From: Tubulanus polymorphus
Taxonomy: Eukaryota; Animalia; Nemertea
Assembly: GCF_964204645.1 (NCBI RefSeq)
Contig: NC_134026.1
Coordinates: 28,864,150 to 28,928,149, forward strand
Direction: 5' to 3'
Length of the DNA stretch: 64,000 bases
Shown here: piece by piece, positions 2,425-44,006 of the stretch
Numbering within the stretch: the stretch's first letter is position 1
Layout of the letters: the number at the start of each line of letters is the position of its first letter
Notes under the pieces: model-generated
The model's input: only the letters and a program-made list of their open reading frames with translations
What the model was told of the DNA's origin: nothing
Databases searched by the model: none
Translations under genes and position numbers: made by a program

Positions 2425-4612
2425 CATTACCTCGATGGAAAAACGATCTAGAAATTGTGTTGTTTTGAAAGCGATCATTTCAAGCGTAGATCATCACGTT
2501 TTATTGGTCATAGATTGCGAGATAGAACAAGTATATTTGGAGACTGTGAGATAAAATCGTGGCGTTTTCTTCTCGTTGGTGATGTGCTGCCCAAAACAGT
2601 GGAGCAGAGATAAAATATCACATCATAAAATCAGTGCAGAGGACAGTCAACGGTGAATACATATTTGAAATATAGTTCGTATATAACCGTAGAAATTAGT
2701 TGATATCTCGCCGACTTCCAATACGTTGAAAACACGAGAAATTGTAAATTGTGCCAAAATGTGTAAATTTGATTGACGAATGCGGAACAAAGTGTTAAAA
2801 CGCCGGTGCTAATAACTGTGTTAAAAATTTGTAAACTTTTCCATTTGAGAGTAGAAGGACTACAGAATGCATGTGAAATATGCCCATTATGTGAATCAGT
2901 TTTGTTGTACATTTCTTTAAAAATCATGAATAAAATATCACAAAAAAGAATTGATATCCATGAAGATTAGTTGAGTATTTTTCAGGGAAAGATGAAAATT
3001 GTCAATATGGAATTGTTGCGCCGTTGTTTCTTTCAGCCGGACAGAGTGATGATGTTTCATTGTCTCATTATATTGAGATGATTCGGACTTTCCGGGTCAC
3101 CGCATTCAACATCGCTATCATCGCGCTTGTTCCCGACACTTAAGAATTATTTTATAGCTTTGACACACGATGGTCGCAGCTATTCATTGACAGTTTTTTA
3201 TCTGTTTGGCGGGGATTAGTGAGAAAATTAACGGCCATGCAACTGTTTAAGGTGTGGGAAATAGCTGGCCAACGACGACTAATTTATCTGCTCTGCTTCA
3301 CACGTATGATGCCTCTAATCCGTGGATATTTGATAGTTCCTACGGTTGCTATATGCACTAGTAAAATTAGTATAATTTAATGACCAACAATCTCTTTATG
3401 AACATTTCATTGAGAATATGAGTCTTTTTATGGCGACATTTTTACAGGATTTTCCGAACCATTAAACACGACGACAGCGAATACAATAGGACAATCGCGT
3501 TCACTTTTTATCACACAGCAGCGCTCAACCTAACGTTCAATACAACCGATTCATGTCGCTCGGTGCCCCTGAAATAGGACGATGGTTTCTGTATATTTAA
3601 AGTAATCGAATGAATAAAAGGAAATAGAAATCTTCTAAGTCAATGCATCCACTTTCCTTTTACATTCACTTTTCACAAACTTGTTTAGTTCTACAGTTTA
3701 ATCCCTCACGTGATAAAACAACAAATCAACTAAAACTAATTTCTTTATTTAATATCGATACATTTATTATGAAAGCGCGAGAAAGAATGCACAAATAAAT
3801 ACCTACGAAGAAAAAGAGACAACGTTTAAATTGGACAATGACTGTTTTTGTTTTATCGACTAAGAATCCAATGTATAACCGGGGACAACGTCAATACTAA
3901 GATGTGTAAAACCAGACTAGAGACAGAGAGAGAATCTAAATCTATTTTCATAAATGAAGACTAGAATAGCAACGATTTTTGTGTTTTTTCCAATTTAGTT
4001 ATGTACTGCTTTTCTACTGATATTTTTATATTCTGAAGTTTTACTACGACATATTCTCTTCACATATTCATTCTTAAGAACTGGAAGACATTTCGTCTAC
4101 TATTATATCGTGTTGAGTAGAAGGGTTAAAAAGGTATATGATTCGTAAATATATATTATCATAAAATACTCTATATTGTGATACGCGTATTCATATAATT
4201 ATCATATAAGATATGAAGTAGTCATACTGCGTATCAGTTTGAATATCGATAAATATTCAGCATTATTTATTTCTAATACTAAATGGCATATAAACAATTC
4301 ACCCTGTTTTGATATTTTATCAGAATTTCACTCAAAAATGTTGATACATACCACGAAGTTGAAGATTTTTTTTAGAGCAATAACCGGCCAATAATCGGAT
4401 CGTTAGGCAATTTTAGAATAATTGAAGTTGTCTTTGCAACACGAGTACATTTGAAAAATCTAACTAATATCTAATTCAACTCAGTTTGCTTTGTACAATT
4501 ATGTTTCGATCTGAGTCTAATAATCTATGTTAATATTTTGAACCGATCAAATAATAAGTTATAAAATAAATATTTATATAAAGTTGTAAAACGTCTATTA
4601 CATCATCGTAAA

Positions 4613-7600
4613 TTATAAATGAGTTATAGCATCTTCATCAGATACCAATCCAGCATCGTACTGACCAGTGGACGGTACACGTAGTAAATGGGACCCGTGT
4701 CTACCACTGCTACTATCTGAAGAACTAGAATCGGATGAACTAGAACCTCTTCGCAATGAACCTTGAAATCCGGCGTTTAACTGTGAATTGTCAGGGCTCT
4801 GGTCCCCTTTTGCTCGAAAACCTGTCATCTTCAATCCACCTGTATCAACACTCATCTATAAGAATATGAATCAAATCGTTACAGCGATTGTTTATGAGAA
4901 ATAAAATCAGACTCATTTTGTTAGATGTACAGTGGTTAAATATGAGATAGGAGGTTACGAGCTTCAGTTTCATTTCATTTGCTTCAAGTTTTCTTTTAAA
5001 ATTAGAATAGTTTTGTTAGATATATAGAAGTAACATAGTTAAATCTGTTACGAGCTGGTTAAGATATCTTTGATCCCAAGGTACATATTATTAGAATAGT
5101 GCAATGTGTTATGTACCTTGTACGGTTTTATTCCGTCCTGTGCTTTCTTCGGAGTGACGCGTGTACTAAGCTCAGGTCTTCTTACCTTCTTCTTCCTATC
5201 ATCGTCTTTCTTGATGTCTTCCTCGCTCGATGAAGACGTGGTTGAATGTTTATCAGACTCTACTTTTATCTCAGGCAAGTCGGCAGTAGGTTTAATTTTG
5301 ATATCTTCATCAGTAGTAAGATGCTTCTTTTTCTTGTGATGTTTCATCTTTTTCTTAGGTTCAATTTTTGTTCCCGCGGTAAATAGCTCTGGCTGTGCAT
5401 GAGCCTGAACTTCTATATCTGGTACAACAACATCTACATCCGAAGTTGTAATTGCATGCCACTCTGGAGGTGTAACGTCAAGTCGCTTCTGTTTCTTATC
5501 GTGATCGCTTTCTGATTCATCACTTTTTGATTTTTTCGATTTACTTTTCTTTTTTGGTAAATGTATTCCTCCTTTTCCAACATTGAACTTCCCCTTGTGT
5601 TTCTTTTTATGATCATCGTCGTCTTCGTCACTAGAGTGTTTCTCTTTACTTTTAATTTTTGGTGAAACATGATGCATCTTAGGTGTCAAGATACCTAGAT
5701 GTGCCTTAGGCTGCTTTTTCTTTCGTTTTGTATCATCATCAGAATCAACTTTGACTTCAATATTTGGTTCTACATTGAGCGTGTAATTGTCTTTCTTCTT
5801 TATTCTCGGACTTGGGACCCTTATTTTCTTGGTTTTTGGTTTATCCTTACGTTTATCACCACTTTCACTCGAAGAAGATTCGGGATGCTTCACATGTATT
5901 TCGGGAGGACTCTTTTCTATACTTAAATCCGGTGTCATATCATAATCTTTTTTCTTCCCAATACTTGGACTAGGTACAGAAATATTCAATTTATTCTTTT
6001 TCTTCTTTTTGCCATCACTACTTTCATTAGATGATTCGGCCTTCTTCGTAATCCTAGGACTTGGTATGCATATTCCACCAGAAAGTTTAGCCTTATGCTT
6101 TTCGTCACTGCTATCACTACTGTCTTCTTTGTCAACAGTTATTTCCGGTGTTTTAGTTTCAACATCAACATTTGCCTTTGGCTTTTTCTTTCGACCAAGA
6201 TTTGGACTAGGGAAGCGGAAACCACCTTTCACCTTAGACTGTTTAGGCTGCTTTTCACCATCACTTTCACTGCTTGACTTTCTATCATCAGAGACGTCAA
6301 CTTTGAAGCCGACATCTGGTACATCTGCATCTATTTCATGTTGCTTCTTTTTCTTGCCTAATTTTGGACTAGGAAAATGAATTCGACCTTTGCGTTTTGT
6401 TTTTAGCTTATCTTCGTCATCACTACTATTACCGGAACTACCATTCTCTTTTGATGGCTTCTTCTTCTTCTTCTTCTTGTCTGGTTCATCTTCACTATTT
6501 TCATCCTCGCTTCCAGATTTTTTGCTTCGCATCTTGAGCCGTGGTGATGGGACTCTAAGGTTAAAACCTTTTTTATGTTTCTTTTCATCACCACTCGACG
6601 GAAGCCCGATATCGGCTTCAACATCGAGTGTAGGTGCTTTTGGTTTATGATGCTTAATCTTTATCTCCTTTTCTACTTTAACCTCGGGAATCTTGTCATC
6701 GTCGGATATATTCCCTTGCATTTCAATAGATGGAATATTCATATCTATCCTACCCTTTCGATCATTATCAGAGACGTCTGGTGACCAAGTATTAAGCTCA
6801 ATTTTGTCTGGTTTCTTTTTGTTCTTATGTTTCTTGGGTTTCTTTTTCTCGTCGAAATCGCTTCGATAATCTGGAAGAGCAGCAACGACAGACATTTGAC
6901 CCTTCTCAATTTTTTCATCTTCATCTCCACTATCTATTTTTACTTCTTGTTGAAAGGTAAATCCACCAATGCTTGCTCGCTTTTTGAGTTTACCTTTCAT
7001 GCAGCATGGACTGCATGGTTTCTTTTTTTTTCTTTTGGTTGACGTCATTGCCTTGCCATCTGCCCCAACAGCTACTGTAACGTCATCATCGGACGAGACC
7101 GAACCGCAACATAGACAACATCGGGACGACCCGCAATGGTTTTCCTGTTTGATGACCTGTGTTTTTCCATCAGGACCAATGACTATAACTTCAGAGTTGT
7201 CTTCGGCACACGGTGAACAAGGGCTGCAAGACCCATTTGTCTTATATTTTCTTTCTTTTTTGACAGCTTGTGTTTGACCATCAGGACCGATAACTATATG
7301 TTCATCATCAGAATCTGCATGTGCCGAACAAGGACAGCATGGGCTACATGTACCACCATGTTTCTGTTGTTTCATGACCTGTGATTTTCCATCTGGTCCA
7401 ATTACGATAACTCTTTTAGAACTAGATGACTTGCAACACGAGGAACCCTTATCATTCTGTTTTGCCTCTTTTCTGACCACTTTTGTTTGTCCATCAGGAC
7501 CAACAACAATGTGATGTTCATCATCATCCGAGTCCGAATGTGCACAACATGGGCTGCATGGACTGCCGTGTTTGTTTTCATTAACGACCTGTGATTTTCC

Positions 7601-10600
7601 ATCTGGTCCCACAACAATAACCTTTTTGGAACGAGGTGATTTACAACATGATGAACACAGGCCGCGCTTATTCTTCTTTTTTTCCTTTTTAACAACTTTT
7701 GTCTCCCCATCAGGTCCGACAACAATTTGGTGCTCTTCATCAGAATCAGAGTGTGTGCAACAAGTACAACATAGGCTACATGAACCACCGTGTGTCCTAT
7801 CTTTAACGACCTGTGATTTTCCATCTGGTCCCACAACAATTACCTTTTTCGAACTAGACGGAATGCAACATGGTGAGCACGCGCTGCCCTTCTTTTTATG
7901 TTGTTTCTTCTTTTTGACAACTTCTGTTTCTCCATCAGGACCGACAACAATTTGGTGCTCGTCATCGGAATCCAAGTTGGCACAGCAGGTACAACATTGA
8001 CTACATGGACCACCGTGTTTCTTTTCTTTAATGACCTTTGATTTTCCATCTGGTCCCACTACTATAACTTTTTTAGAAGCAGATGACTTGCAACATGGGG
8101 AACACAAGCTGCCCTTGCTGTTCCGTTTTGTCCCCTTTTTGACCACTTCTGTTTCTCCATCAGGACGGACAATTATATGATGTTCTTCATCGTCCGAGTC
8201 TGAATGATCACAACATGGGCTGCATGGACCGCCGTGATTAGTCGTTTTTACAACGCGTGTTTTACCCTCTGGATCTATCACAATTACTTCTTCTCCTGAA
8301 CCGGAGCCTATACAGCACGGTGAACATGAAGCACCACCACGTTTCCTCTTTCGTTTCTTCACGATGTGTGGTTTACCGTCGATCTCAACATGATGCTCTT
8401 CATCCGATGCATTATGGCCAAGGCAACACGGAGAACAAGGACTACAAGATGTGTGTTTCTTTGTGCGCACAGTGTGTGACTTTCCATCGTCTCCAATAAC
8501 TATTACCTCTTCATCGGATGAACCATCACAGCATGGGCTACAAGGAGAACATTTAGATTTCTTTCCGTGTACAATTCTTGATTCTCCATCTTTTCCTATG
8601 ACCATTACTTCTTCATCCGATTCTTCGCAACATGGGCTGCATGGACAGCATTTTGCCTTTTTATTGCACCGCACAGTTTTAGTTTCACCATCTGCGCCAA
8701 CTACAATTTCTTCGTCACTTGTCTGTGCAGCACAACATGGACTACAAGCGCAGCTGTTTCCGCCTTTTTTCTTTCTTCGCACAGTTTTAGTTTCACCATC
8801 TGCACCAACTACAACTTCTTCGTCACTTGTCTGTGCAGCACAACATGGACTACAAGCGCAGCTCTTTCCGCCTTTTTTCTTTCTTCGCACAGTTTTAGTT
8901 TCACCATCTGCACCAACTACAATTTCTTCGTCACTTGTCTGTGCAGCACAACATGGACTACAAGCGCAGCTCTTTCCGCCTTTTTTCTTTTTTCGCACAG
9001 TTTTAGTTTCACCATCTGCACCAACTACAATTTCTTCATCACTTGTCTGTGCAGCACAACATGGACTACAAGCGCAGTTCTTTCTGAATTTTTTCTTTCT
9101 TCGCACAGTTTTAGTTTCACCATCTGCACCAACTACAATTTCTTCATCACTTGTCTGTGCAGCACAACATGGACTACAAGCGCAGCTGTTTCCGCCTTTT
9201 TTCTTTCTTCGCACAGTTTTAGTTTCACCATCTGCACCAACTAAAATTTCCTCTGTCGACTCGTCATCACAGCATGGGCTACAAGGACAACATTTATTCT
9301 TTCTTCTTCGTACATTATTCTTTTTCCCGTCCTTCCCTATAACTTCCTCTTCTTCTGAAGAACCATAACAACACGGACTACATAAAAGGAGACAACTGCC
9401 ACGCTTATTGTGGCCTTTGTTTCTCGTCTTGCCATCGGCTCCGACAACGACTTCATCGTCATCTGTAGAATCATCACAGCATGGACTACACGGGCTACAG
9501 ATAGCTCGTTGTCGTTGTTTCCTTCGAAGTCGTTTTCGTCTTTTACCCGAAATGCCACCACCAACACCTAAATCAGTTTTCAGTTCTCCCTCGTCATCCG
9601 TATCTGATCCACTGCCTTTTTCTCTCATTTCCTTCTGTCCCTTCGCATCACCAGACCAACCACTCTCGACATCGGATCTGAGTCGGTTTTTCTTACGTTT
9701 TTTTCGACAACAGCCGCAACATAAACACCAATCATCACACCACCCTCTACAGCACCCGAATACAATACAAATAATGATCAACAGCGCCAATAAAACAGCC
9801 AGCAAAATTACAGCGACTAACAACTGCATTCTTGCTCCTTAAATGAAAATGTTCAAAACGATTATTTCAGTTATCATTTAGCTATATCATGAAACCCAGG
9901 TAAATGCTGCCCTACCTATTAATATGGGAGCTCCGATTGGTGCTGCAGGATCTGAAATGAATTCATATATTTCACGTCGAGCAGAGATTTTTCAAATTGA
10001 TATTGAAATTGACACTGACATTGAAACTTACATAAAAAGTTAATGACTGTCGAACCTCTACCATTTGGACCATGATATTTTGGGTCACCTAGCTTGAAAA
10101 CCTGTGCTCGTTTTGCGGGGGGCATTCCACCAGGGATTCCACCTGCAGTTGCTCTACGCCTTCTAGCTACGGTGGTGTCTACGCCCATTGCATATGCTAC
10201 TAACATCGGCATGTTGGTTTTAATGAAATCATGGTCAGTTGATTCATTTGCTGAAATTCGAAAAGACGCCACATTTGTTTTATTCTACAATGTCTAATCA
10301 ATTCCAAAAGCAAAGTTCACAATTGGAGCATACCTTGCAGTTTTTTTCTGAACGCGACAAATGTATGTGTAGACGTCTGATAACCGACGACACCGGTGAG
10401 TGAATCAGTGAGTCCGAAATATGAATCTTCTAATGGATAGGCTGTACCCCACGAGTATAGATCCCGAATTCTTGTCTTATTTTTAAAGACTGACACTATG
10501 ACCATATCTAGGCAGGTCATGCTCGTAAATGCTATTTGAAAACAAACATATAACAACATTTAGGATTTCCTTAGCAGCAACTTCAAATTGGACAATTCAC

Positions 10601-13600
10601 AATACTCACTGAGGGATTTGGCTGTTGCCGCGGGGAAAGCCGCACCACCCGGTTGTAATGGGACAGCACCCGTGCCACTACCTAGGGTAGTGGTCGGTAC
10701 TTTCAGCCAGTCATTACACGTATTATTCAAAATACCTGAAATAAGGATTTGCGATTTCATTCCAGTCATTCCATATTAAGACTTATTAAGTAAAGGAAAT
10801 GATCGTACTGTTTGGTCGCCAACCGATTCCAACCCAGGATGGTGTCTTCACGTCCAATATCATCTCAATCTCATTCGTACTCTGAAATACATAGATACTG
10901 GATGATGTAACTTAATCATGTTGCTTGGATTTCTGTCCCATGTCACACATTACTACTATGCCTATCCAGATGCGCTTACATTTAGTACTTTCCAGTATAG
11001 GATAAAATCACTGCGTAATGTTTGTTTCTGGTAAATATTGATGTCCTGATATGATTTGGGTAGTGAGGTAAGTGATGATTCTAAAAAGGAGAATTATACA
11101 TAAATCTAATATTATTTCTAGATGAGAAATATCTATTTCGAAAATAATAGTTTTAGGCGTTTCCTTCATGAACAGATTTTCAGGTGCACCTACTTCTATT
11201 ACAGTATTTGCCTATCCAGCCTTGGTAGCAATAGCATCGTCTTCTGGGGTATGTGACAGATGCCATGTCGTAACAGATACCATTATTGTTACAATCAGTT
11301 GTATCCCAACATTCATCTAAACAAAGTCACAGATATGTAGGTCCATAAATCGATATGTGATAAGTTGATCTTGAAGTACTGAACATACGGTATTTACCTT
11401 TGTACTGACAGAATGCCCCTGCGTAAAGCTTCGAACAAACGCACTTATTTCCATTCCAGCTACCATTTGATCCACAAGCGGCTGTCTTATTGAAAGAAGC
11501 TGAAAAAGACGAACACTACGTGAGCCATAGAATTACTGTACAGTCGTTTCTTTTTTTTACTTTCGTCACCGATGAACTAGCGATCCCACTTAAAAACAAA
11601 GATTTACAAACCTGTGGCAACAATGTTGACATCAGAACATGACCAATAGTAAGTGGTATTAGCCGAATCAAAAAGCAGAACCCGCAGGATACAATTCTGA
11701 CAGGTGTGAGCTGCGGGAAATGTCAATTGGAATTCCTCTTGTCTATAAAAAAAATTCACACGAAATGATAATTTAGTTCAATTCTCTTGGCATATCCTCT
11801 TCAAATGACTTACGTGTAGATAGCCGGTGCTCCAAACGTTGGTTGGTTAGCATTAACAGCTGGAATCACATTGGATATAAGCTTTCCCGTTGCATCCAAA
11901 ATTTGAACTATCAAACTTCCCTTTTGAAATTTAGAATAAAAAGAAAACATTCCAAGTAGAGTGATTTAAATAGAGATCACAAGTATGATCTAAAACAGCG
12001 ATTATTCCTGTTTTCATACACACCTTCTCTATAACTGCCACTCTAAACATGATTTTAACTGCGACTCCTGCTTCGATATTTACTGGATTTGTTCCTAAGT
12101 ATGAAATAGAAATACCCCCTTCATAATGTTATGGACAATTATATGGACAATGACGATCAGCAATCATTCATGTTATAATGTTTTGCTTTTGAAAATGATG
12201 CCGATTTTTGCAGTAAGTTATAGAGTCTAAGTCTTTCTTCCTGTTAATACAATTCGTTGAAATTTCGTTGGTATTTTTAACGTAAAGTACGTGGATTGAC
12301 CTGAGGGTCGATGGGGTGTTTTTCTCTTGAATCTGGTCTGGGCTTCATATTTAATCGCATCTGACCTAAAAATGCCCAGCGAAATTCTAGCCATAATGAA
12401 CGGCACTGTCCATAAATAATTGATAAAATCTGTATTACAGATAGAATTTTTTGACGATATTTTGTCGCTTTTATCATTTCATTAATGGGCAGGTCTCCCA
12501 ATAGACCTACTCACTACTTATATTTGCATACTTCAACATATTAGGCCAAGTACTGTTTTCGATACTCTTTTTCTGAACTCTGGTACTTGTATTAGTTACT
12601 TATATGTGAATGAACCACCCTTAGCAAGGTTTTACACGAATTGGTCATGAATATCCGCGAGCATATCGACCTAACTATCATTGAGTTCTTCTACAGTAGC
12701 TTTTTCCCTCGTGAATCTTATGGACTTAATAAAAATCGAATCCTTTATTCAAAAAATTATAAAATTCTTACAATAGAACAGCACCATTATTAATATGATT
12801 ATAAATATTAGTATATATATTATAATATATTGTCTCTGTGGCGCAATCGGTCAGCGCGAAGGTTGGTGGTTCAAGCCCACCCAGGGACGCTTTATACTTT
12901 TCACTTTATTCTAAAAATACATCCTTATGTATTTCTGCTGTATGAAAAGCTGTTACATTTTAATCTAGATTGATGTTTCTAACGCCTACTATATATTCAA
13001 AATATTTCGTTGCAATCGGTACAAGATATGGGTGTGAACGATCATGCATAAGTGCCATTAAAAATTCCACTGACGAATTCTGAGACTTTGTGGTTTTTAA
13101 GTAGGGCGTCGAGGAATAGGTTTCGAATTGACAAAATTGTTTACAGTTGAATCAACAGTGTGTATTTTTATTTTCTACCTAATGCCGACTCATTGGTTCA
13201 TCGGTGAAATTATGTTTGTCATTATATAACTGCGTTAACTTTTGCGTACTATAGAATAAACTTGTGTATTATTCAGACATTATGGCAATGCTCGTCGTCT
13301 TATTTGAAAAAAAAAGTATCACTTTTATAATTTGACTACTTTTTTCATTGTATATATATATACTATTCAATTCTATTCTTGATGACTGTCCCACGAACCA
13401 TAGTTTTATTTACCCCAGTGAAGAATACTTAGCTTTATGTATAATGACAATAGTAAACGTTTGGATAGTGGAAGAATTTGGGGTAAGGACGGGTGCGGTA
13501 TTTACTCACTGCAGTAATAAGGTGGCTTACTACAAATAGATACCTGTTTATTGACTGGATAGGTGCATTTACTATCATTTATTGAGCGACAAAATTGAAA

Positions 13601-14188
13601 TTCTACAATAATTATAATATTTCACTAGATTATTGTTTTCATTCATTTATGAACGTCCAAAGTGGTCCAAAATAAATACTTCTAATAATAAGAAACGAGA
13701 AAACTAAATATGCCAGTGCTCCACCCTACGTACGTAACTTCTTAAGTTAATATAGAAAACATATACGTATACGATTAAAAACATATGGACCAATAGAAAG
13801 GTTTTCTACAAAATAGGGTTCGATAAATATTATCTGAAAACACTTTTTCTGAAAAAAAAAATAATTTCATATTTTTTCTTCGCATACTTTTAGACTTTTG
13901 TTTGTGAATGAAATGAAAATGATCTGCGCAAATTAATGTTGATTTCAGTACATGTAAAAAGCAGTTTAAAATAAGTTAAAAATATGATTTCGCTTTAAAT
14001 TGATACATAGATAACATACCGGGTGTTTTATCCATTCCACCGCAAATCGGATTGGTATTTTTGTAGTTGAGATTATCGAAAGCGTATCTTCTCGCTGGTG
14101 GCCAAAGTAACGAAATATGACCGCTACATTGATGGAACATCATCAAAGCCGAGATGGATATTCCAAGGTATAACTTGAATACATCCAT
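4613..14188 (-). CDS. Giant type I membrane protein (~2139 aa): signal peptide, His1 LPMO-like domain, 2x EGF, DOMON, TM, Cys-rich repeat and Lys/Asp/Ser-rich cytoplasmic tail
   Basis: 14 phase-consistent GT-AG exons: 14188-14020, 12094-12024, 11920-11814, 11742-11612, 11499-11398, 11316-11194, 11080-10980, 10881-10809, 10735-10610, 10531-10334, 10250-10032, 9951-9916, 9837-5117, 4855-4613 (sum 6420 nt). Motifs: CSG|HISLLWPPARRY..PICGG..TCQNCILR..YYWSCSDV; CGSNGSWNGNKCVCSKLYAGAFC; ECWDTTDCNNNGIC..RCYCYQGWIGKYC; LYWKVL..IEMILDVKTPSWVGIGW..SMTCLDMVI..FRKKL..DHDF..KYHGPNGRG; TM LLVAVILLAVLLALLIIICIVFG. Confidence 0.85.
8671..9243 (-). repeat. Coding minisatellite, 108-bp (36-aa) unit, about 5.3 near-identical copies
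   Basis: gcacagttttagtttcaccatctg recurs at 8671, 8779, 8887, 8995, 9103, 9211; encodes CSPCCAAQTSDEEIVVGADGETKTVRRKKKGGKSCA. Confidence 0.95.
12832..12889 (+). pseudogene. tRNA-Asn(GTT)-derived sequence lacking the anticodon arm
   Basis: GTCTCTGTGGCGCAATCGGTCAGCGCG joined directly to AAGGTTGGTGGTTCAAGCCCACCCAGGGACG matches the 5' and 3' halves of the canonical metazoan tRNA-Asn. About 16 nt (TTCGGCTGTTAACCGA) are missing. Acceptor stem GTCTCTG/CAGGGAC still pairs. Confidence 0.88.
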
Positions 14189-15127
14189 CTTGTGACGAGG
14201 TTTTAAAAGGAAGTAGCCAAATGATTATCAAAGAAACGACAGGACATTTCCCATATACAGCTCATTGGTTCACTACTCAGAACCCAAAACTATAAGTGGG
14301 TAGAATATCGAGCTCACAGCACTAAAGAGTGAAGTAGACTGTTCTAATATTATATTGCATAGGTATATATATGGATTGATTCTTTTGTCATTTAAAATTC
14401 ATATCACATACTAATCAAATTGCGGCAGTATACTTTGTGCTCGACAGGCGTGTTTTAAATACCTGCTTTAAGATGAATCGCGCATTCCATTCAAGCAACA
14501 CGTTCAATATGTTTATGAATCGTAGAAAAAGTTGTCTAAGAATTTATAATATATACTAAGAGAACAAAGCAACAGCGACAACGTTCTCAGCAATCAAACA
14601 CAGAAATATTTGTGTCTTAGGCTACGGAAGCGTCCTGGGGACATAATTAATTTTTTTTGCTGATTGAAAAATCATAAAATTAATTATGAATTCGATTTTT
14701 TATAAACTGTTATGTTGTTCCGACCGGCGTTGATTTAATACGGATTTATGCCATCCGTATCCGTATGGGGGTCGTCGCGTTAACTCCAAAAAGGGAAAAT
14801 AGTATTGACGTCAACTCCGATGAGTCTCAATACTCCCAATTTCAAAAGCGTTTCATTACTTCAAATGTCATTACCGGTTCTCCGAGGGACAACATTCCTG
14901 GCCTTTTTGTGGGTACCAGGGGCTAGCTAATATGACAATATCCTAGCTGGTGGGTACCGCGTAATACCAAAAACGACACCTGTTTTAAGTCATCCAGTCT
15001 AAAACCTACGCCATTAGATTTTAAATGACAATGAAATACATGTGATTAAAAGAAACAACGTTTATTTTAATGGAGAAATGCCTTATAGTCGTACGCATGA
15101 ATCACACCTACATTAAATCAATAATTA

Positions 15128-17159: not shown

Positions 17160-18353
17160 ATGATGGCCTCAGCATCATCAGTGAAGAAGGGAATGCGGCG
17201 GTTCTCGGCGTTACCAGTTTATGTAGTTGATGACCACAATGAAGTTCTACCATTCATATACCGATGCATCGGCTCCAAACATCTTCCGATGTCCGGAATA
17301 AAGATCATTCATTTTGACGCGCATCCTGATCTTTTGATTCCCGCTGAATATCCCGCCGACAAAGTGTTCAACAAGGACGAACTTTTTGAAGTTTTGAGTA
17401 TCGAAAATTGGATAATGCCGGCCGTTTACGCAGGTCACATAGATTCAGTGGACTGGGTTAAACCGGCGTGGGCGCAGCAAATACGAGAAACAACAATGAA
17501 AATTACTGTGGGAAAACATCGAACATCTGGAACTATAAAACTGAACAATACTGAAACATATTTCATGAGTGAACTATTATACGCTCCGAACAGTGAGCTT
17601 CTCAATCAGAAAGGGTTAAACGTTTCCGTTAAAACTCTTCCTCATATCCTGAGAGCTAATAATCCTGTAGCAGGGGAACCAGATTCCTCGGAGCACCAAA
17701 AACATGGTTTAAAAAGATCTGCATCTGGGGATTTTATAACTCAATGTGATGATCAGTTTTTCATTCTGGATATTGATTTGGATTTCTTTTCAACTGTGAA
17801 TCCATTCAAATCTATATATACTGAACATCAGTATTCATTGTTGAAACAGATTTTCCGTTTTCAGCCACCGACAAACTCTAGTGAGAAATCTATCCAAATG
17901 TGCCTGGAAAATCGACAGAAACAACTCGCTGAAATTAGGCTTTTTATCAAGGAAGCCGTGCTGGAAAATAAAACCTCAAAAACTTCAATTACCGGTAATG
18001 AAAATATTTCAATGCGTAGGAAATTGGTCCATGAACTGATTTCTGAAATATGTGCTAAAACCTCTGAAGAAATTGATATTGATCAAATCATGCAAACAGG
18101 TTTCACTTGTGATGACGACAGTGAACTTCCTCATCATATTAGTTCCGATGAGGAAATTCACCGATTAATACTTAATGTCAGCGATTATCTGAAAGATTTA
18201 CCTCATAAACCGACTATAGTTACGATAGCTAGATCGAGTAGTGATGAGTATTGTCCATTAGATCAAGTTGATCAGATTCAATCGTTGGTTTTTGACTTAC
18301 TTACCAAACATTACGGTGAATTAAATGTAACCTTGAAATATAAGGATGATTGA
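17160..18353 (+). CDS. C5orf22: UPF0489 family protein (C5orf22 homologue), single coding exon
   Basis: LPVYVVDDHNEVLPFIYRCIGSKHLP, HFDAHPDL, LSIENWIMPAVYAGH, ILDIDLDFFSTVNPF, ELPHHIS and TIARSSSDEYCP motifs. Confidence 0.92.
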   Translation: MMASASSVKKGMRRFSALPVYVVDDHNEVLPFIYRCIGSKHLPMSGIKIIHFDAHPDLLIPAEYPADKVFNKDELFEVLSIENWIMPAVYAGHIDSVDWVKPAWAQQIRETTMKITVGKHRTSGTIKLNNTETYFMSELLYAPNSELLNQKGLNVSVKTLPHILRANNPVAGEPDSSEHQKHGLKRSASGDFITQCDDQFFILDIDLDFFSTVNPFKSIYTEHQYSLLKQIFRFQPPTNSSEKSIQMCLENRQKQLAEIRLFIKEAVLENKTSKTSITGNENISMRRKLVHELISEICAKTSEEIDIDQIMQTGFTCDDDSELPHHISSDEEIHRLILNVSDYLKDLPHKPTIVTIARSSSDEYCPLDQVDQIQSLVFDLLTKHYGELNVTLKYKDD

Positions 18354-41217: not shown

Positions 41218-41964
41218 TTCTTAAACAGGTTCACGACAATGAGATTCGACAATGTGCTGAAGGTTGGGGTGAAAAACAAACGTTAGATATATGTCTCTTG
41301 AAATGAATGTAGCTGACGCTAACTCCGCTTGCCAGTGCCAGCACCACTAGCATTAACCCCGCTTGCCAGTGCCATCATCACTCGCTTGCCACAGACCCTG
41401 CTCGCAGGTTACGGTGACGAAGTGTTTGACAATTGTACAAACTCAAGGTCGTAGAGCGAATTCCTGAAGCTGAAACGATTTTCGATGATTTTTTTACATA
41501 AATTGTCATAGGTGATTAGCAAAGCAAATGATGTATATGGCTAAAGGTTTAAAATCATTCATTATTTATTTGAGCATTGCGCTTGAGTTTGAAATTGCCA
41601 CTCATTCAATCATTCAATGCATCATTGAAAATCAAACCAAATCGAATTATAATAAGGTCATGCACTCAAAGTCCAGGCCCCTTGGCCATGTTGGCCTTGT
41701 CCTTGTGACGCAGATAATGGACAATGTTAGGCCTACAGTTAACCAGTGCACAGAGCGGTCAATCACTTGCATGCTGACACTGATATAAAGATATTTTATG
41801 AACACTATGCATCCTCTCTATCATCTTTTGTGACAATCCCTTGTGGTTCTATGTGACAATCCCCTGTAGTCTGTGAGCCACATTAACTCTGCCACATGAT
41901 ACTTATTAACAACATGCTTATTGTAATAATTTCAGAGTCAATGGTTGGGAGAAAGTAATGAAAG

Positions 41965-44006
41965 ATGTTGGCAAAATTGAATCAACGCGCTTTGGCCTAT
42001 TCGGGTGCATCATTGGGAGCCTCGATCGTTCACTCAGTTTTTATGTTTTACTATGTGAAAGTTTTCCTAAATCGTTATCACGTTACAGAGTGGTGGTTCC
42101 AAGTCTCCCAGACGCTATTTCTCATCTGGAATTCAGTGAACGATCCACTGTTTGGTTATTGTCAGGATAACGTGAAGATGAAATGTTTTCAAAGTCGGCG
42201 ATTGATCATACTGAGCGGGTCGTTTCTCTTTTCGCTATCATTCCTGGTTCCGTGGTTTCCATGGACGACCGATCCGAAAAATGAATGGATCGTCGGATTA
42301 CATCTTATCGTAGCTTTATTCTTCTACGACGCTATGTTCACCTATGTATTGATCGCTCATGCTTGTCTATTCGCTGAACTTTCCACAAGTATCGAAGATA
42401 GAATTCGTTTAGTCCGGTATACACGATTTGCCTCATTGATCGGTGGTTTATCCGTGTTTATATGCGAATCAATCTCGAGGAATTTGAAGAATTATCTAGC
42501 GTTCCAGATCACATGCGTTGCTCTCGCGCTGATATCTTGGCAATGCTTTCGTTATACGGGTAACAATTGCCACACTGAATGGGATCTGAAAGCTAAAGAA
42601 GAACACGGCAATGAGGATGCAGTCGCTGACCGCTCAAGTCAATACACCTGGTGGCAGTTGGTTAAACAGCTATTCACGAATCGTAATTTCATCTGTGCAG
42701 TTTTGCTCACTTTATTCTCAGATTTTCATCGTAATTATCTCAGTAATTTCATGGCGATAATTGGCGACAGTTTGCTACCAAATCTTAATTCTGGAACCCG
42801 AAGTGTTTTGTATGGAGCTTCTACGTTTTTACCACAGGTACTGCTCAGAGGACAGTTGCTCGAAAGTTGGTTAGAAATAATGGACGAATACCATGGTAAC
42901 AATTTGAATACAATTTCAATTGTCGCTATGTCATTTATCCACTAGTTAACCAGATATCTAAATTAAAATGTTGATTGTTTCAATTATCCGGTCGTGCTCC
43001 TATCAGCAGATATGTGTTCATATTTTTCAGATTTTGATCATTGTTTCTACTCCACTTCTATCGAAATTTGGATATTACAGAGTAATGGGACTGATGATAT
43101 TATTGAAAATTATGCTTGGTCCCTGTATGTATCTGATTGGTCGATCGTCCATTATATTGTACGCTATATATCTCCTTTTAGAAGGGTAAGACATTTCTGA
43201 ATGATAGGCTTGTTATATTTTCTTTTCGATTCTGATATCCTATGTTTAATACTTAAAGGTGTGTAAGTACATTAGTTGCTGGTCCATTCGCTCTGATGTT
43301 TTCTGATGTCATTGATGAAGACTGTCTTAAATATAAACGGCGGTATGTACATTCATTGAATCAATTATGGATTAGGCTAAACAAAAATGATACCTTGTTT
43401 CTCCGCAGCGGCCGGGTCATTTTTGTAAAATATGATAAAATTTATAAACAGTTCATTTCTATAGCGGCCGGGTCTATTATGGTAAAATTGATCACGATTT
43501 TAAAAAAAGTAATGTATAGGGTAGATAGGCGGCTGGCCGGGTCAACATTTAAGCTCACCAGAGCGGAGAAACAAGGTATCAATTTTTTTTAGCCTTACAG
43601 TCAACCCCCATTCCACTCTAACGCCAGGTTTTTTCTAAAAGAAAGGAACTTCTGTATTTTGTCTTGGAAATTAACGATATACCACTATACTTATCTTTTC
43701 TCTTTCAGCCATCCAATTTCAGCAATGGTGTTTGCAGGAAATGCTCTCATCGTAAAACCTGCGCAGTCATTTGCACCTATGATAACTGTAGCGATTTTCA
43801 ACGCTTATGGTTATGAGAAACTTCCTAAAAATAACGTTTTGTCGGTCGCAGCAGATTCTAGTTTCACGCCGCTATTTGAGACAATGTTTGGATATTCATG
43901 TTGGTTACCATGTGTCATCGGTTTGATACAGATTATATTGTGGAAATGCTTCACAATAAGAGATACACACAAAACTATCCCTGTATACAATGATAATGTT
44001 TGTTAA
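41965..44006 (+). CDS. MFSD13A: MFS-type transporter MFSD13A (TMEM180), 4 coding exons
   Basis: VFMFYYVKVFL..IWNSVNDPLFG, FLVPWFPW, YDAMFTYVLIAHACLFAE, DVIDED..Y.R, PISAMVFAGNALIVKPAQSFAPM. Exons approximately 41965-42837, 43031-43185, 43259-43342, 43710-44006. Confidence 0.88.
43375..43594 (+). mobile_element. 220-bp PIF/Harbinger MITE, copy 2 (MFSD13A intron)
   Basis: Same TIRs as copy 1; TTA target duplication. Confidence 0.92.

Follow-up and report, generated by a model that had tools for sequence, protein, structure and literature searches.

A minus-strand gene of Tubulanus polymorphus predicted to encode a lytic polysaccharide monooxygenase-like, EGF and DOMON surface protein with a probably degenerate copper site and a giant cysteine-rich tail

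The minus strand of a 64,000-nucleotide stretch of Tubulanus polymorphus DNA (contig NC_134026.1, positions 28,864,150 to 28,928,149; the whole stretch is called the window here, and positions are counted from its first letter) carries a gene for a predicted modular surface protein, which we rebuilt from the sequence as 14 exons running from 14188 to 4613. The window is AT-rich animal DNA (GC 0.32-0.43). In coding order, the exons, all on the minus strand, occupy 14188-14020, 12094-12024, 11920-11814, 11742-11612, 11499-11398, 11316-11194, 11080-10980, 10881-10809, 10735-10610, 10531-10334, 10250-10032, 9951-9916, 9837-5117 and 4855-4613. Each of the 13 introns has GT..AG ends, the frame is unbroken, and the product of 2139 residues has a single terminal stop, which reproduces exactly what an earlier note, made from the letters of the window, had proposed: 14 in-frame exons and a protein of ~2139 residues. 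The motifs quoted there (CSG/HISLLWPPARR, CG, found as ICGG, and YYWSCSDV) are likewise all in the rebuilt product. The order of parts is signal peptide, a head that resembles lytic polysaccharide monooxygenases (LPMOs) and begins with His, two EGF modules, one DOMON, a mini-exon, a membrane helix and a tail of 1626 residues.

Exon 1 (14020..14188) holds the start codon, the signal peptide (residues 1-23), the start of the LPMO-like domain and ICGG; exons 2-4 (11612..12094) encode the remainder of that domain (residues 57-160), which ends in YYWSCSDV. Two EGF-like modules with four and six cysteines are encoded by exons 5 and 6 (11194..11499), and one DOMON with an inserted loop by exons 7-11 (10032..11080). 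The predicted 36-nt mini-exon, exon 12 (9916..9951), encodes the linker YPAAPIGAPILI and would carry the reading frame from the DOMON into the membrane helix (9755..9829, residues 489-513) at the start of exon 13 (9837-5117). Behind the helix lies, at 9707..9754, a juxtamembrane Cys cluster, CCRGWCDDWCLCCGCC, followed by the polybasic KKRKKNRLR; then come an array of 23 repeat units (6959..9466, residues 610-1445) and a Lys/Ser/Asp-rich half of the tail (5117..6958, residues 1446-2059). Exon 14 (4613..4855) contributes the last 80 codons and the stop (4613-4615), so that the protein ends in ...SDEDAITHL. Pfam was run on the window gene exon by exon, and comparisons with the spliced protein were run against fetched homologue sequences. 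Single exons gave weak matches whose order and profile ends are the expected ones: a BIM1-like N-terminus, an LPMO_10 C-terminus, EGF twice and DOMON. With the colinearity of homologues described below, this order bears out the layout proposed earlier, an LPMO-like, EGF, EGF and DOMON ectodomain followed by one helix and a very large Cys-rich tail.

With exon 10 as query, HMMER retrieved 36 proteins (E ≤ 0.001), and DOMON was present in all 18 of those scanned in Pfam. EGF precedes DOMON in five of the 18 (P0004, P0017, P0029, P0031 and P0032), two of which have an N-terminal BIM1-like_dom (P0004, 31.6 bits over profile positions 1-136, with a cut-off of 27; P0032, 21.1 bits). Over model residues ~10-480, the spliced ectodomain is colinear with six proteins at full-sequence E-values from 1.7e-75 to 3.8e-43, namely Tachypleus LOC143240269 (P0017, E 1.7e-75), Biomphalaria LOC106064189 (P0004, E 7.9e-71), a Haliotis asinina protein (P0032, E 2.3e-63), a Lineus protein (P0029, E 9.1e-63; its longer isoform is P0046), a Logan-derived sequence (P0030, E 2.7e-52) and Pristionchus GMT16913.1 (P0031, E 3.8e-43). 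The homologues align along the entire ectodomain at E 1e-29 to 1e-63, a level well outside chance. Their sources include a chelicerate, gastropods, a nematode and a nemertean, and all six are named 'uncharacterized' or 'hypothetical' or bear automatic labels such as Teneurin-3. By alignment, the window ectodomain belongs to this uncharacterised invertebrate family of LPMO-like/EGF/DOMON surface proteins, whose conserved motifs are H-x-x-L-x-x-P-x-x-R, PCG, W-x5-H-x-GG and FWSCAD. The earlier note had mentioned uncharacterised invertebrate proteins with such an ectodomain and no comparable tail, and the six proteins found agree with that statement, with CSPCC repeats in 0/6. A helix follows the ectodomain in five of the six, the Pristionchus protein has an end like that of glycosylphosphatidylinositol (GPI)-anchored proteins, and the tails measure ~70-280 residues. 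Word-index homologue searches with exon 10 and exon 1 gave no match, the ESM Atlas returned only unnamed clusters for the mature part of exon 1 (scores 0.79-0.84), and tblastn found no ectodomain paralogue in the window. Going by literature listings and the openings of abstracts, no functional study of animal LPMO-like/DOMON fusions was found. Proteins that combine an LPMO-like domain with DOMON are of an already known kind, widespread in animals; what is new here is a His-to-Glu change in the head and the giant repeat tail.

The head spans ~137 residues. Its His24 (codon 14117-14119) is the predicted mature residue 1, following CSG and, before that, a hydrophobic core; His is the first residue in 6/6 homologues with an N-terminus, and small residues at -3/-1 precede it in 7/7 sequences including the window protein. 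Exon 1 matches BIM1-like_dom (E 0.015, profile 1-30, 16.2 bits against a cut-off of 27), exon 4 matches LPMO_10 below its cut-off (E 0.04, profile 150-183), and PDB sequence searches with exon 1 alone and exon 4 alone gave 0 hits each. An alignment of the heads of five homologues (A1) contains 27 invariant columns, including H1, P7, R10, C26, G27, W48, H55, G57, G58, C104, C107, F122, C125, A126 and D127. Searched as a profile against the PDB, A1 gave TdAA15A (5msz_A) as the best solved-structure match (E 1.6e-4), with the family's (Y/F)PH(x)GG on A89-P90-H91. Copper in TdAA15A is held by His1 and His91, with Tyr184 axial and Ala89 nearby (PMC5823890; for this and the two other papers cited, statements refer to the passages drawn on here). 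In Pfam, the five homologue heads match BIM1-like_dom in four cases (best E 2.6e-7, one above the gathering score) and LPMO_10 in three (best 6.8e-7). Because of these Pfam matches and the 5MSZ profile match, we regard the family's head as a true LPMO-superfamily domain, as judged from AA15/AA10/BIM1-type homology. Fold prediction of one homologue head (Lineus P0046, residues 34-167, with the A1 alignment) yielded an all-beta sandwich of nine strands at a predicted local distance difference test (pLDDT) score of 61.7, for which the longest VIA-align alignment (115 residues, Z 7.6) was to the AA16 LPMO-like 7ze9.

The A1 profile aligns from one end to the other with the window head (65.8 bits, residues 24-158), which has Glu79 (codon 12027-12029) at the invariant His55 column, the counterpart of His91 in TdAA15A. 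This position carries the top posterior, pairwise and multiple alignments agree on it, and the second His is kept in 6/6 homologues. The Glu79 codon has no base differences in the covering contigs of three sequencing runs (X1, X2 and X3, introduced below), and the window contains no alternative exon carrying the histidine motif. The head keeps 15 of the 27 invariant columns, among them His1, Pro7, Arg10 and all four cysteines; the 12 lost are L14F, F16N, P25I, T36V, L38I, W48F, H55E, G58S, L111V, A115 (a gap), F122Y and A126S, and the family-conserved RQAxEW stretch is shortened. Of the LPMO hallmarks on which the earlier note relied, the mature His1 end and the terminal YYWSCSDV strand are present, but the second copper His is Glu79 and the brace is incomplete. 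Its redox reading fares similarly: the head and DOMON do share the ectodomain of one predicted protein, but because the second His is Glu79 and just 15/27 columns are kept, the window copy does not encode a canonical histidine-brace copper centre supplied with electrons by the DOMON. From sequence, the copper site in the window copy is likely degenerate. Brace variants that lack the second His, or carry a carboxylate, are tied to copper handling or transport rather than to oxygenase activity, and YcnI, a copper protein with a 'mono-histidine brace', has its second His replaced (PMC10952591). His128 (in AAHTC), the only other His in the head, was considered as a substitute ligand and set aside, as homologues have Glu or Ser there; head-like matches upstream at 14901-14983 (E ~22) were rejected as noise. 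Tyr148 precedes WSCSDV in the window protein; the family Phe at this position aligns weakly (E 0.27) with the Tyr of ...IYLSCADI in AoAA13 (4opb). That Tyr is Tyr224, which we take to be the axial residue of AoAA13; in LPMO families other than that of TdAA15A the axial aromatic is Tyr or Phe.

The EGF modules score below the Pfam cut-off in the window gene and above it in relatives. Exons 5 and 6 match EGF_Teneurin, EGF_2 and EGF at E 4e-4 to 4e-2, with exon 6 (six Cys) reaching 20.8 bits for EGF_Teneurin (cut-off 24.3) and 17.6 for EGF, and exon 5 having four Cys; the aligned modules of P0046, P0029 and P0017 exceed the cut-off at 28.8, 29.2 and 25.9 bits. Pfam DOMON (PF03351) matches exon 10 (E 1.1e-6, 29.3 bits against a cut-off of 32.7, profile 34-101) and exon 8 (E 0.023, profile 11-40), and the spliced region, residues 306-483, aligns with homologue DOMONs at domain E-values of 2.3e-19 to 1.3e-25, those homologues scoring 37-710 bits in Pfam. 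Two motifs, MxCxD(I/V/M)(I/V) and YHx(2-6)RG, are kept in 7/7 sequences including the window protein, where they contribute Met339 (10518-10520) and His460 (10072-10074). The spacing between Met and His is 114-121 residues in the family, and the Met is at least 90% conserved in a fragment alignment (A2). PDB searches with exon 10 alone or the A2 profile gave 0 hits to a solved DOMON by sequence. Such a Met/His pair is the proposed set of heme b ligands in DOMONs of the cellobiose dehydrogenase (CDH) type and of CYBDOM (PMC10784544). By this correspondence, Met339 and His460 would be equivalent to M90 and H174 of HYP1 (PMC10784544), and we infer that the window DOMON binds heme b.

The helix at residues 489-513 is the only Kyte-Doolittle segment above 1.6 in the 2139 residues. 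All seven N-glycosylation sequons (7/7) precede it, and the stretch just behind it is rich in CC and strongly basic. Because the sequons all lie before the helix and the basic stretch after it, the protein is predicted to be a single-pass surface glycoprotein of type I topology. A helix stands at the corresponding position in the Lineus homologue, and similar CC-rich juxtamembrane stretches occur in the homologues P0024, P0002, P0025 and P0046.

Four sequencing runs of one organism (X1-X4) contain the stretch; none is labelled RNA, and all were compared over 4400-14400. Contigs of X4 skip exactly 4855/5117, 11316/11398 and 11499/11612 with CT..AC ends, which confirms three of the 13 introns, and X4 was treated as RNA-derived because its contigs are spliced. 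Junction 5117>4855, which the earlier note had singled out for checking, is spliced in X4 contig 25 at depth 11. X4 contigs also cover several parts of exon 13, including its Lys/Ser/Asp-rich half. Contigs of X2 and X3 at 9557-10009 are unspliced and DNA-like and were left out of the splicing evidence. For the gap between exons 11 and 13, there are just three in-frame AG..GT mini-exon options, all with donor 9916, and the best acceptor among them gives 9951-9916. Junctions 10032>9951 and 9916>9837 are predictions, drawn from this splice logic and from the same layout in Lineus LOC135486457. As a separate observation, one X4 contig stops at 12212 in intron 1, and its next 120 letters match nowhere in 4400-14400; a repeat transcribed elsewhere and an unrecognised exon junction are both possible sources.

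After its juxtamembrane stretch, the tail carries the repeat array, 23 units of 33-44 residues (~36) between residues 610 and 1445. The unit consensus comprises an acidic S/T-D-E-E patch, an (I/V)VxGxDG hairpin followed by V, a Lys/Arg run and a CSPCC-type cluster. At least 70% of the 23 units conserve the cluster, and at least 70% the GxDG hairpin. Residues 600-1440 (841 residues) contain 91 Cys and 26 His, with Cys at 10.8% in CxC, CC and CxxC patterns. At the DNA level, the array contains tandem repeats of 108 base pairs (5.4 copies, 96% identity) and 225 base pairs (4.2 copies, 75%). By a crude Nei-Gojobori estimate, older units differ at a synonymous divergence (dS) of ~0.8 with a nonsynonymous-to-synonymous ratio (dN/dS) of ~0.34, and young units have a dN/dS of 0.35. 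Because the ratio between units is ~0.34-0.35, the repeat peptide can be said, on these codon comparisons, to be under purifying selection. Residues 1446-2059 are rich in K (19%), S (12%) and D (11%), have one Cys and contain recurring (V/F/I)PSPx(L/I)xKKK motifs; no Pfam family was found for this half. Tail matches to Caps_syn_GfcC_C and NucS_N are sums of sub-threshold stretches, none of which passes alone, and were taken as repeat artefacts. A search with the 1596-residue exon 13 frame among candidates of 877-2793 residues found no tail homologue, the ESM Atlas gave no usable match to the repeat array, and a literature search for the string 'CSPCC' retrieved acronyms only. The C-terminal -T-H-L matches the class I PDZ-ligand pattern, and the ITx-hydrophobic C-terminus common to the window protein and Lineus P0046 may, by analogy, be a conserved PDZ-type ligand. 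Two length variants were seen nearby: a 3-base in-frame deletion at 7023, within the tail, in X1 and X2, consistent with a tail that tolerates small in-frame changes, and, in X1, the loss of 12 bases from the last intron at 4974.

The account we favour, which we hold to be about evenly balanced between right and wrong as a whole, is that one 14-exon gene encodes a 2139-residue single-pass glycoprotein with a copper site that is likely degenerate and a lineage-specific tail at the inner face of the membrane. The head would no longer be a histidine-brace oxygenase and would act in binding instead, its partner being a polysaccharide, a ligand in the matrix or a metal coordinated by His1 and a carboxylate, and the DOMON would bind heme b. 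By analogy with acylated proteins, each tail repeat might be held at the inner leaflet by its polybasic run together with an S-acylated Cys cluster, and the protein would thereby tie extracellular contact to a large membrane-apposed platform ending in the PDZ-ligand-like -T-H-L. Several results weigh against this account. The first 50 Foldseek matches listed for the homologue head model were Ig-like domains, and 7ze9 scored level with Ig V domains (Z 7.4-7.8, a common range); an LPMO did not come first among the structural matches. Glu can bind copper, and YcnI has a 'mono-histidine brace' in which the second His is replaced (PMC10952591), so that the loss of catalysis is our reading of the sequence. 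The tail is absent from all homologues, as judged from six family members and one tail search, and its Cys clusters could bind metal instead of being S-acylated. AlphaFold2 on eight tail units gave a pLDDT of 37.7 with hairpins as the sole structure, a result that supports neither side. Finally, X4 contigs are absent from 9076-11079 and from exons 1-3, which leaves junctions 10032>9951 and 9916>9837 outside the RNA contigs, and direct splicing of exon 11 to exon 13 (10032 to 9837) joins T to GA and creates TGA exactly at the junction.

The last two points bear on whether the ectodomain and tail belong together. They would fit a locus with two products, a secreted ectodomain, ending after exon 11 or through the 11>13 splice, and a separate signal-anchored Cys-rich protein from the 9829-5048 reading frame; exons 7-12 and both linking junctions lack an RNA contig, the direct splice puts a stop right at the junction, and the third-codon region of exon 13 offers an ATG (three codons from its start) with a hydrophobic stretch after it. 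Even so, the exon 13 frame starts right at a good acceptor whose phase is the one that the mini-exon leaves, a helix follows the ectodomain in 5/6 family members (the sixth having a GPI-like hydrophobic end), the Lineus protein has a post-helix motif and a C-terminal end in common with the window gene, and one and the same run, X4, has spliced contigs both of ectodomain exons 4-6 and of tail exons 13-14. We consider two products quite unlikely, and a single gene for ectodomain and tail very probable, because of the phase logic and the anchored relatives, including the layout of Lineus P0046. It is conceivable that a single alternative splice decides whether the ectodomain is secreted or the giant anchored protein is made. 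Granted one protein, the ectodomain might be a self-contained redox device, in which the head binds copper through the amine and imidazole of His1 and the carboxylate of Glu79 and the heme DOMON feeds it electrons, such that cuticle or matrix polysaccharide is oxidised or sensed; the cytochrome of CDH is a reductant of LPMOs. The head keeps His1, its four cysteines and the aromatic residue before WSC, and the DOMON Met/His pair is present in 7/7 sequences. In YcnI another ligand stands in for the second His, X325 has an additional Asp ligand (PMC10952591), and DOMON-type cytochromes with Met/His heme are known for CDH and CYBDOM (PMC10784544). What makes this device rather doubtful in our eyes is that LPMOs are described with two histidines (PMC5823890, PMC10952591) and that variants without them are tied to copper transport (PMC10952591); beyond His55, the family-conserved Trp48, Gly58 and RQAxEW are lost too, a pattern like that of relaxed constraint on the site.

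The remaining alternatives concern the tail. Its 23 CSPCC-type clusters (~90 thiols, often with His near) might, by analogy, form a metal-thiolate store or sensor that binds cytoplasmic Cu(I)/Zn(II) and is coupled to a metal-binding head. The X325/Bim1 proteins are linked to copper transport (PMC10952591), the Pfam matches of the head include the family that takes its name from Bim1, a copper acquisition factor, and the 91 Cys and 26 His in 841 residues are arranged as CxC, CC and CxxC. We nevertheless judge such a store unlikely: the single-pass protein offers no obvious route for metal across the membrane, and the tail matches no metal-binding Pfam family. Nor does the tail resemble metallothioneins, which have ~30% Cys, as against 10.8% here, with ~30 charged residues between clusters. 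Another alternative takes the tail for a recently expanded low-complexity region of little specific function, tolerated on an ectodomain-driven receptor. Five units 96% identical in DNA, the failure to find a tail homologue or a confident fold, and the 3-bp in-frame length variant at 7023 in X1 and X2 all suit that idea, which is very improbable all the same, given older units at dS ~0.8 and dN/dS ~0.34, the CSPCC and GxDG conservation in at least 70% of the 23 units, and a 4.7-kb frame that is intact and transcribed. The boldest version of the favoured account, and a long shot, is a retired 'pseudo-LPMO' receptor with a carboxylate for the second His in its binding head, a heme DOMON and a 23-cluster tail (~90 thiols) that would form a micron-scale S-acylated platform or a Cu(I)/Zn store.

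If the protein is such a pseudo-LPMO receptor, it would link, across the membrane, a metal or matrix signal outside the cell to the cortex within. The window copy is also a natural variant, with the second brace His changed to Glu and the rest of the scaffold and the DOMON ligands kept, against which the family's need for the full brace could be judged. The tail is a large, selected and regular Cys/polybasic repeat and, if multiply acylated or metal-loaded, would represent a novel type of scaffold between membrane and cortex; if it is neither, the gene is a divergent member of an unstudied receptor family.

Other features of the window lie around and within this gene. Downstream of the tail exon, a plus-strand frame at 1801-2424 has a basic helix-loop-helix domain (Pfam HLH, E 7.8e-20) and marks a transcription-factor gene. 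The next gene upstream, on the opposite strand, is a 397-residue single frame at 17160-18353 (+) with a UPF0489 domain (E 1.9e-54), and several MFS-type transporter frames occupy 41962-44006 (+), with MFS_2 at E 9e-14 on 41962-42945 and more at 43257-44006. Intron 1 contains, at 12850-12915, a high-copy element with sequence like that of a transfer RNA (tRNA), where X1 reaches a depth of 188 in the bin 12750-13083; several contigs diverge at 12889-12895, inside the element. ARAGORN called no tRNA anywhere in the window. We take the element to resemble a tRNA without its anticodon arm, and it is probably a tRNA-derived short interspersed nuclear element.

Among known systems, the closest is the uncharacterised Lineus longissimus LOC135486457 (XP_064625320.1, 792 residues, P0046), which has the same order of parts: signal peptide, His-first head, two EGF modules, one loop-bearing DOMON, helix, CC and tail. 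The two proteins share 190 identical residues, a common RK(R/K)NxLRxD just after the helix and a TxL(V/G)(I/V)GGG(V/I) stretch, and their C-termini, ...DEEEITQF in Lineus and ...SDEDAITHL in the window protein (4616-4642), both consist of an acidic run and then I-T-x-hydrophobic. The Lineus protein differs in keeping the second His (…SPTHDGG…) and in its tail of ~280 residues, which is acidic and free of CSPCC repeats. P0017, P0004, P0032, P0031 and P0030 are also colinear with the window protein over head, two EGF modules and DOMON and have a membrane or GPI-like anchor, but they carry 3-8 DOMONs, often with SEA, have tails of ~70-190 residues and keep the second His. TdAA15A (5MSZ) shares with the window head an N-terminal His after the signal peptide and an animal origin (PMC5823890). 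It is a free secreted enzyme of ~200 residues that has five disulfides, a complete His1/His91 brace and demonstrated activity, whereas the window head has ~137 residues, two predicted disulfides and Glu for His91, and is fused to EGF, DOMON, helix and tail. The X325/Bim1 proteins (PF20238) are, like the window head, small, LPMO-like and membrane-tethered with a carboxylate at the copper site, and are non-catalytic as far as is known (PMC10952591). They differ in being fungal and GPI-anchored, with both histidines and an Asp as extra ligand; the window protein has a helix and 1626 further residues instead of a C-terminal GPI signal. The CDH cytochrome domain, AIR12 and CYBDOM/HYP1 resemble the window DOMON in having Met and His in a DOMON sandwich (PMC10784544). 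The Met-His spacing is 84 in HYP1 as compared with 114-121 in the window family, and the window protein, unlike cytochrome-type DOMON systems, has no cytochrome b561 or flavin partner on its chain. With no sequence homology to them, the tail recalls SNAP-25, GAP-43 and cysteine-string protein, in which S-acylated clusters of 3-6 Cys flanked by Lys/Arg lie on the cytoplasmic side of the membrane; each of those proteins has one such cluster, whereas the window protein has 23 in tandem and a juxtamembrane one.

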